Assembly (NCBI GenBank): GCA_964016885.1 | Contig: OZ024744.1 | Location: 86,056,001-86,120,000 of the forward strand | Source of the DNA: Eledone cirrhosa | Taxonomy: Eukaryota | Length of the DNA: 64,000 nt | Reading direction: 5' to 3' | In this document: piece by piece, positions 22,395 to 24,219 of the stretch | Layout: the number at the start of each line of letters is the position of its first letter | Numbering within the stretch: position 1 is the first letter of the stretch | Notes under the pieces: generated by a model | The model's input: the letters and a program-made list of their open reading frames with translations, nothing else | The model's database searches: none | Told to the model about the DNA's origin: nothing | Position numbers and translations under genes: made by a program

Positions 22395-22590
22395 ATAGGA
22401 ACAAGTAAGACCCCTACGGCTGAGCTCAAGCCGTTTCGACGGCTGATTCAGTACAGAATTAGCCGTCGAAACGGCTTGAGCTCAGCCGTCGGGGTCTTAC
22501 TTGTTCCTATTACCCACTCTACTACCCTAAGTATTGAGTACTTTGGTGCGTTATGGTCCACCTGGTTCCTTACCACATTTCCTTCGTTAT
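22395..22590 (+). mobile_element. pLTR-end family A, palindrome pivoting at HHR stem II
   Basis: Arms 22395-22449 and 22456-22510. GAAA at 22468 and GTC at 22488-22490. Confidence 0.8.
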
Positions 22591-22951
22591 ATATATATAT
22601 ATACACGCAAACACATATGCATACAATATATTTATATGTATTTATATATAAGTATATGTCTATATATATAGTTTCCGTTGAAAATTGAAAAAGTCAGAGG
22701 AATGAAGAGTGCTCTATGTAAGTTACAGAGCTAAATATTTAAATATATATATATATATGTATATATATATATATATATATATATATATATATATATAAAT
22801 ATATATATATATGTATGTATATATATGTATATGCATATGTGTATATATGTATATACATATGTATATATATGTATATACATATGTATATATATGTATATAC
22901 ATATGTATATATATAAATATATATATGTATGTATATGTATATATATGTATA

Positions 22952-23183
22952 ATTGAAAATTGCAAACTTGACTGTCACAACACAATGTGAACCTGAAGAT
23001 TGCGAAAGCATGAAAGTACTTTTTCAATTCACATTTATTAACATCAATTAACATCAATTACCATACTATTTCATTCTAATACCATTATAATTTTAAAGGA
23101 TTGTAAATAAAACGAGTGAATCAGACAAAGTTGGAATTCCTTTTATTAATATAATCTTCTATACACAATCATACACACCCGTA
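22952..23183 (+). mobile_element. Solo pLTR of the Neptune-like PLE, with HHR at 22988-23026
   Basis: Aligns by eye to 11337-11556 with the same HHR core. Embedded in TA repeats. Confidence 0.85.
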
Positions 23184-24022
23184 TATATTTATCGCTCTAT
23201 ATATCTATATCTATATATGTATTTATATATATGTATGTGTATATATATATATATATATATATATATATATATATATATATATATATATATATATATATAT
23301 ATATATATATATACATATGTATATATATATATATATATATATATATATATATATATATATATATATATATATATATATATATATATATATATATATATCC
23401 ATGGAGCGCTAGTCTGCTCAATATGGAAGTTGTGTATTGCTAGTTTCTACCCGCCGAAATGCGAATCTCGCTAAATTTACATTCGTATATATATATATAT
23501 ATATATATATGAGAGAGTATTGAAGTTTGCTTGAAGCATTGTGGAATAATAGGTAAATATCTTTAAGTCGTTTGGAAGCCTCGACAATGCAAATGGGTAA
23601 ATCTCCGGGTAACAAGATCCGGTGGTGGAGAGAGAGATGTAAGTGGGTGTACGTTGAGATGCGTGGCGTGTATAAGACGTGTAGAAGAATGAAGGAATAT
23701 ATATATATATATATATATATATATATATATAATGCATATATATACAAAAATATATATGTAAATATATATATTTACAAACACACACACACACACACACACA
23801 CACACACACACACATATATATATATATATATATATATATATATATATATATATATATATATATATGTGTGTGTGTATATATGTATGTATGTACTAATAAA
23901 CCTCTGTTCGTACTGCCTCTCTGTCTTGATGCCGTTCCATTTTTCCCTATATATATATATATATATATATATATATATATATATATATATATATATATAT
24001 ATATATATATATATATATATAT

Positions 24023-24219
24023 AACGAAGGGAATATGGTACGGAACCAGATGGACCATAACGCATGAAAGTACTTAATACTTAGGGTAGTAGAGTGGGTA
24101 ATAGGAACGAGTAGGACCCCGACGGCTGAGCTCAAGCCGTTTCGACGGCTAAGTCTGGACTCCAGAATTAGCCGACGAAACGGCTTGAGCTCAGCCGTCG
24201 GGGTCCTACTCGTTCCTAT
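24023..24219 (-). mobile_element. pLTR-end family A, palindrome pivoting at HHR stem II
   Basis: Centre tctgga-c-tccaga (24154-24166). The long arm is on the left. Confidence 0.8.

Follow-up and report, generated by a model that had tools for sequence, protein, structure and literature searches.

Palindromic end stubs of a Penelope-like element in Eledone cirrhosa and a proposed two-cDNA model of their formation

Penelope-like elements (PLEs) of the Hydra clade, which carry a C-terminal endonuclease (EN+), have been described by Craig et al. 2021 (PMC8557442), and the structure of PLE insertions, an inverted copy plus a tail, is already published (PMC3846280, PMC8557442). Arkhipova et al. 2013 (PMC3846280) reported an inverted pseudo-long terminal repeat (pLTR) with a one-sided tail and palindromes at the junctions, and proposed that they arise by self-priming. 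The origin of the inverted-plus-tail insertions of PLEs and the in vivo role of their hammerhead ribozymes are both named as open questions in the literature (PMC8557442, PMC4209133, PMC11167929); statements about published work refer, here and below, to excerpts of the cited papers. We analyzed a 64-kb stretch of Eledone cirrhosa DNA (assembly GCA_964016885.1, contig OZ024744.1, positions 86,056,001 to 86,120,000; hereafter the window), in which stub-like palindromes of approximately 190 bases sit in (TA)n runs, and searched the 3.0-Gb assembly for their relatives. The palindromes are end stubs of a 3.5-kb PLE inserted in (TA)n. The kind of insertion is known. The mechanism given for it in a first-pass annotation of the window, in which the nascent cDNA snaps back on stem II of a hammerhead and primes itself, is wrong, and a mechanism with two cDNAs is better supported and testable.

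Other described systems bear on individual steps. The protein of the PLE Poseidon PAc cuts and extends both strands in vitro, two internal starts of reverse transcription delimit a tail, the protein is predicted to be a dimer, and uncleaved RNA is the main template (Frangieh et al. 2024, PMC11167929). Transcription of Drosophila virilis Penelope begins inside the upstream pLTR from an internal promoter (Schostak et al. 2008, PMC2377424). Minimal hammerheads of PLEs, including a U3-A8 core variant and motif pairs on opposite strands, were already found in Schistosoma (Cervera and de la Pena 2014, PMC4209133). The excerpt of a paper on Octopus vulgaris repeats lists Penelope-like families and mentions neither hammerheads nor palindromes.

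The parent of the palindromes was recovered as a natural head-to-tail array (G000:C1:91.47 Mb) of 3,543-bp units with one intact open reading frame (ORF) of 719 residues. The PLE origin and the hammerhead-bearing pLTR claimed by the first-pass annotation are correct. Long copies of the stubs extend into the 3′ untranslated region (UTR) and the ORF. The ORF codes for a reverse transcriptase (RT) with a C-terminal GIY-YIG endonuclease and contains YRDD and VIY...YIG. A motif scan located RWR (for RWK) at 37, DKT at 117, the CxCX5C linker CNCPDRSIC at 572, the CxxC motif CNLC at 670, and the CxH motif CKH at 698, and as judged from these motifs the ORF matches the Hydra-clade description of PMC8557442. 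The nearest Atlas clusters (0.96–0.99) carry HTH_animal, GIY-YIG, and RVT_1 on part of their members; a direct Pfam scan of the ORF returned 0 families, and a PDB sequence search with it returned nothing significant. Insertion into (TA)n, a Hydra-clade trait, and the layout of EN+ PLEs, with partial tandems or pLTRs, an adjoining inverted 5′-truncated copy, and an optional tail, are present as well. The element differs from the published Hydra-clade PLEs in having a 3.5-kb unit with a 1.15-kb 3′ UTR, whereas those are generally shorter than 3 kb, a tail of approximately 80 nt instead of 30–40, and a family A ribozyme with a U3:A8 core and a loop II of approximately 33 nt instead of the canonical form.

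We number the parent from the A of TTC[A]TTTAGTCC as +1. The 5′ strand of stem I lies at about −46, the core TTGAnAA at −41, the 5′ strand of stem II at −34 to −23, loop II at −22 to +10, the 3′ strand of stem II at +11 to +22, and GAAA at +23; the predicted cut follows C45. The TAT of the short end occupies +63 to +65, that of the outer end +143 to +145, and the first ATG is at +239, so that +1 to +145 is the 5′ leader of the next unit. The region around the array (G000:C1:91.47–91.50 Mb; L201–L203) holds four near-identical full units head to tail, with 0–4 differences between units of equal length, and a long array of a 42-bp piece of the ORF between the tandem and the inverted arm. These arrays suggest rolling or repeated use of the template, or trouble in the assembly.

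Palindromes centered in one 30-base zone gave 10,651 forward and 10,670 reverse matches genome-wide, while a reversed-pattern control gave 0; as each palindrome locus matches on both strands, the paired counts represent approximately 10,650 loci. A 25-base motif across the border of the short end and the tail has 8,361 exact matches genome-wide. The first 90 of 100 listed matches to it, unselected with respect to the 5′ end, served as a breakpoint sample, from which 67 short pairs of a tailed and a tail-less arm were scored. The tailed arms end at +1 to +12 in 60 of the 90, at +13 to +44 in 10, at +45 or +46 in 6, at −9 or −10 in 3, with the other 11 ending further upstream; owing to the self-complementary stem III, the placement of four arms at +26 is ambiguous. 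None of the 90 ends at −1 to −8 or at −11 to −59. The short arms stop at a sharp wall at +1 to +6. The inverted arms end at +65 in 54 of 67 pairs. Insertions use two fixed TAT sites (+65 and +145), nearly always one of each, and the short arms end at TTCCTAT, in keeping with the TAT match to the (TA)n target that had been pointed out.

The tail-less arm is frequently the longer one and is therefore not a copy of the other arm. In the short pairs, it reaches at least 3 nt further 5′ in 16 of 67 (one of them, L161, is ambiguous), is shorter in 19, and agrees within 2 nt in 32. Long insertions were represented by 28 clean tailed/tail-less pairs among 58 mapped loci, which were picked from lists and not at random, counted by eye, and exclude solos, complex cases, one case with two tail-less arms, and arms that ran off the locus; the tail-less arm is longer in 18 of them, by up to about 3 kb, the tailed arm in 9, and one pair is equal. 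Across the genome, 286 matches join a tailed arm ending after +22 to a partner that extends to +7 or beyond, and uneven arms likewise occur in subfamily B and family C. In 12 of 47 hotspot centers, the arms are separated by 0–2 unpaired bases, which are too few to form a hairpin loop. Runs of A and T flank many joins on both sides.

The two arms of a palindrome derive from one source. They belong to the same subfamily in 88 of 90 palindromes, the two hybrids being L026 and L028, and in unselected palindromes they are concordant in 21 of 21, compared with 18% by chance. Nineteen of these 21 pair a tailed with a tail-less arm, a proportion that cannot be reached by independent choice (at most half); one of the other two has two tail-less arms, and one is unclassified. 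Truly rare variants are common to both arms at L068, L070, L078, and L136. The variants put forward in the first-pass annotation as private to single palindromes are subfamily alleles: acgagtagga is contained in the 8,361 exact matches counted above, acaagtaaga is an allele of the L271–L294 subfamily, and aaagagtcagga is one of subfamily B. Its statement that each palindrome was built separately and not amplified as a miniature inverted-repeat transposable element (MITE) nevertheless holds, as the centers differ from copy to copy.

The arm statistics fit one RNA copied from two primers. We favor, on balance, the explanation that reverse transcription of one RNA is primed by both of the cut target ends, the copies run off its 5′ end, and they are joined head to head. 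A dimeric RT/endonuclease would cut both strands, priming would occur at +65 and +145 of the same RNA, and the outer (+145) cDNA would displace the inner one. Either RT switching or end-joining by the host would connect the cDNAs, with use of microhomology, untemplated A's, or short patches copied from a template. The wall would be the RNA polymerase II start site, with the promoter upstream in the 3′ UTR; the stubs would consequently lack a promoter and be dead ends. In family A, the start site would lie in loop II and leave the 5′ copy of the ribozyme incomplete, and a rare class of palindromes with both arms at +46 would be copied from the 3′ product of hammerhead self-cleavage. Several observations weigh against this explanation. 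The two hybrids require two templates or later conversion, one RNA is indistinguishable from two RNAs of one source, and some joins (e.g. GGACCCC/TACTC) are compatible with a 3-nt snap-back loop. Poseidon provides the cutting and extension of both strands, the two starts that delimit the tail, and the predicted dimer, but initiation there shows no homology to the target, whereas this element has the TAT match, and no model of an inverted join is given in the excerpt (PMC11167929).

To judge from the genomic sequences, the wall probably marks a transcription start site. Among partners of long arms, only 2 of 28 stop at +1 to +12, and the wall therefore behaves as the end of a template and not as a stall. 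The clearest test comes from family D, which matches a single core pattern 15,534 times: of 14 of its arms met incidentally, 13 end at +1 to +15, just upstream of a complete CTGAnGA core. Three family D subfamilies keep TATAAATACCA 30, 31, and 29 bases before the A of the wall, although the spacers diverge, and a CCAAT lies further upstream; the center of the family D palindrome in the window is the A that sits 29 nt after TATAAATA in long copies of its subfamily. In family A, TATTTAAA or TATTCAAA lies 29–31 bases before the A of TT[A]GT (+5), whose AGT does not vary within A and B, while the rest of the loop has diverged. Position +5 may be the main start in family A, and apparent ends at +2 to +4 are possibly untemplated A's after a true end at +5. 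The family A wall falls in loop II, unlike that of family D, which lies upstream of an intact hammerhead. Sequencing runs of DNA show a copy-number step at the wall, which is perhaps not independent evidence.

Other features speak against a start site. Subfamily B lacks a TATA-like box at −30, and in family C the box is weak and the cluster broader, with 16 of 32 ends at +2 to +21. The upstream region of family D is AT-rich (TATAWAWR would occur by chance in a 7-base window with a probability of 0.016), its three subfamilies share ancestry, and the single copies L243, L244, and L252 have other spacings. The walls read YAG, like splice acceptors, and in family D they fall on the 5′ edge of stem I. 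The sole RNA run among seven, available as contigs only, gave one contig, away from the wall. A short TATA spacer that shifts the wall was considered for L244 and dropped, since L244 is a single deletion variant.

An alternative is that two cDNAs were joined but the wall is an RNA-processing site, such as a splice acceptor or nuclease site, or a fixed RT stop, an explanation that we consider unlikely. All walls read YAG, subfamily B lacks the box, the RNA run is uninformative on starts, and in D. virilis the 5′ end of helix I is where an intron end has been mapped (PMC4209133). However, the junctions examined contain no fixed upstream exon or leader after the wall, the partners of long arms rarely stop there, and the TATA spacing is conserved in family D.

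Still less probable is that a single cDNA reaches the 5′ end of the RNA, turns on microhomology, and copies itself to +65, with later deletions at the center producing the uneven arms. Palindrome centers are prone to deletion, and such a sequence of events would account for the shared alleles and for the coupling of arm classes; some joins also fit small loops or repeated re-priming. It is contradicted by the inverted arm, which is longer than the tailed arm or within 2 nt of it in 48 of 67 short pairs, and by 18 of 28 long pairs, in which the tail-less arm exceeds the other by kilobases. Several long arms end at +65 with no partner in the stretch of sequence examined. The hybrids, the palindromes with two tailed or two tail-less arms, and the centers of 0–2 nt do not agree with it either.

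The hammerhead-like fold of family A and subfamily B is a feature of the parent. The parent contains the type I core (C3/U3-UGAN-G8/A8-A9, GAAA, NUH) and stems I–III, in a U3:A8 form (TTGAnAA) with a loop II of the length given above. Among 102 natural copies found with a pattern requiring TGAnAA, 89 read TTGAnAA and 13 CTGAGAA (a C3/A8 mismatch), and N7 varies between G, T, and A. Across 11 sequences of five subfamilies, 90% of cells in the stems are paired, three pairs show two-sided change, all in stem II (few of the lineages are independent), and minimum free energy folding returns the three-way fold in three of the six commonest variants. A family A sub-lineage (L016, L021, L053, L061) reads CTGAGAA; going by the sequence, this mismatch may make the ribozyme inactive, in an element that spread nonetheless.

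The proposed snap-back on stem II has next to no probability. In its favor, stem II is a real covarying helix, the arms share alleles, and the claimed symmetry center in the stem II loop stands for family A (60 of 90 arms at +1 to +12). It does not stand for the palindrome at 1025–1160, which is centered in stem III, nor for families C and D, and family D and several other families are centered upstream of the core. The mirror image is not stem II of the parent, whose true 5′ strand, G(C/A/T)TCGGCTATT, lies 33 nt further upstream. Short cDNAs never reach this strand (−34 to −23), since 0 of 90 arms end at −11 to −59, and the predicted junction has 0 exact matches genome-wide. The predicted parent with CTGANGA just 5′ of gacggctaattc was not found: the pattern has seven matches, all in an unrelated repeat. 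The frequent excess of the tail-less arm disagrees with snap-back as well. Family A arms in palindromes do lack the 5′ half of the ribozyme, but the core is not missing from palindromes in general, as family D demonstrates. A MITE-like or short interspersed nuclear element (SINE)-like master palindrome amplified as a unit would explain the very high copy number and the fixed outer ends, but is just as improbable given the varying centers, the asymmetric tail, an unbroken gradation up to PLE arrays of several units, which have the same two ends, and a promoter that likely lies outside the stub, the last of which also disfavors short self-transcribing, SINE-like stubs.

A second wall coincides with the predicted ribozyme cut. 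Very small palindromes are concentrated at +46, directly after GTC. At 62 loci genome-wide, both arms reach +46 with at most 10 bases between them, and both arms can include +45 in only 11 of the 62, of which 10 are one microhomology junction. Of 50 listed loci inspected by eye, 21 stop exactly at +46 in both arms with an untemplated insert, 13 are blunt CCCC/GGGG (a CG overlap makes them ambiguous), the GAC type accounts for 9, another 7 extend further on one side, and none stops at +45/+45 or +44/+44. This class probably consists of copies of the 3′ product of hammerhead self-cleavage, to judge from the position of its ends. Two points count against that: the foot of stem III, a place at which RT could stall, is one base away from +46, and the corresponding cut-site class of family D comprises 23 matches, mostly ambiguous. 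In vivo evidence for cleavage by PLE hammerheads is stated to be lacking (PMC4209133), and the excerpt on Poseidon reports that RNA reads at the hammerhead site were not found (PMC11167929), in contrast to the genomic class that stops there in this genome.

We speculate, with considerable doubt, that the element follows a retrovirus-like program by target priming, in which the 3′ UTR would be a U3-like promoter, the RNA would have a 45-nt terminal redundancy, and the palindromes would be pairs of strong-stop cDNAs from failed jumps. The start site would leave the 5′ hammerhead incomplete, the 3′ copy would cleave at +45, and reverse transcription would begin near the 5′ end of the RNA at two sites. 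If this is true, the genome preserves a base-resolution record of both the start site and cleavage by the ribozyme in vivo. Approximately 10^4 independent junctions per family discriminate between models, against self-priming and for two primed cDNAs on one RNA, and they point to an upstream TATA promoter and a small class that ends at the predicted ribozyme cut.

The insertions resemble those of Arkhipova et al. 2013 in the head-to-head inverted pLTR, the tail on one side, and a TATA and initiator (Inr)-like motif in the pLTR. They differ in how the junctions are read: there as self-priming on an antisense template, here as two primed cDNAs on sense RNA, with arm statistics that tie the center to the 5′ end of the RNA (PMC3846280). 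The internal promoter of D. virilis Penelope is TATA-less (Inr plus downstream promoter element), whereas the CCAAT and TATA candidates described here lie upstream, in the 3′ UTR (PMC2377424). The small, non-coding, PLE-derived hammerhead repeats known as non-LTR retrozymes (bioRxiv 10.64898/2026.07.22.740005) form head-to-tail tandem units with whole ribozymes, unlike the one-off head-to-head stubs; assignment of the stubs to this class was rejected on account of this orientation and of the family A arms without a 5′ core. The literature searched, which comprised sources other than subscription papers and supplements, contained neither a head-to-head model with two cDNAs nor start-site walls for PLEs. 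In twin priming of L1, one RNA is primed by two ends of the target, and microhomology serves to join the resulting cDNAs, giving an inversion. The L1 arms cover non-overlapping parts of the RNA, whereas the arms of the PLE cover the same part from fixed starts, and a palindrome results.

Table 1 Palindromes and stubs in the window (positions in the window; PLE numbering with sign)
Feature	Positions	Strand	Description
Tail-less arm, family A palindrome (subfamily of L271)	22395..22449	-	Internal TAT end +65 back to +11 of parent; ATTC 22446-22449 is a 4-nt overlap compatible with both arms of the 22395-22590 palindrome
Tailed arm, family A	22450..22590	+	Initiator-like A (+5, conserved, TC[A]GT), or +1 via overlap, to outer TAT end +145; tail 22511-22590
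3′ half of hammerhead-like fold	22456..22495	+	Stem II 3′ strand 22456-22467, GAAA 22468-22471, stem III to 22489, predicted cut after C22490, stem I 3′ strand 22491-22495
Tailed arm, second family A palindrome (subfamily A1)	24021..24161	-	+145 to +5
Tail-less arm, second family A palindrome	24161..24219	+	+7 to +65; overlaps tailed arm by 1 nt
Solo tailed arm (stub)	685..826	-	Stops at +5, then one extra base, then (TA)n
Related palindrome	1025..1160		Arms join in stem III, not loop II
Subfamily B palindrome	61952..62114		Tailed arm (+ strand) begins at A of TT[A]GTT, 61983
Family C palindrome	12636..12950		Tail of ~95 nt at 12636-12730; arms stop at different places, ends ~36 nt apart, away from any stem II loop
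Family D palindrome	62141..62351		Complete CTGAAGA...GAAA hammerhead core in both arms

The palindromes named in the first-pass annotation are all present in the window (Table 1), and those of family A and subfamily B carry GAAA, stem III, GTC, and the 3′ strand of stem I within (TA)n, as it had described. In family C, the 5′ half of a hammerhead core was not found by eye. An Rfam scan of the window contained no hammerhead among the 150 of 338 matches listed, which are low-complexity, miRNA-type matches below the gathering score. Stubs of this kind are easily mis-annotated as MITEs or miRNA hairpins.

At least about 25 further families in the 1.47 Mb examined form palindromes of this tail/tail-less kind, and in several of them both arms contain a whole CTGATGA core. 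The head-to-head layout of a tailed and a tail-less arm in (TA)n is also seen at 18263–18593 and 13151–13527 of the window. Family F contains a CAGAAGA...GAAA core-like motif, and many of its arms begin near TT[A]GTTTC. At G000:C3:177.78 Mb (L018/L033), a second, AT-rich PLE with a related RT and a CNCxxxxxC linker adjoins a family A copy of reverse orientation; PLEs accumulate in each other's (TA)n. Family E (29394–29651 and 40834–41003 of the window; L158:538–1400) forms tail/tail-less palindromes in (TA)n whose centers lie directly after the B box. Its longer copies have a tRNA-like head in tandem units of approximately 617 bp, and ARAGORN calls tRNA-Ser at L158:538–610. Family E is possibly a tRNA-containing non-autonomous element mobilized by a PLE. 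Dispersed repeats of approximately 200 bp, which we take to be tRNA-SINE-like, are abundant in the window and often form tandem pairs (1799–2024 and about 25 other places; 29998–30219/62432–62663).
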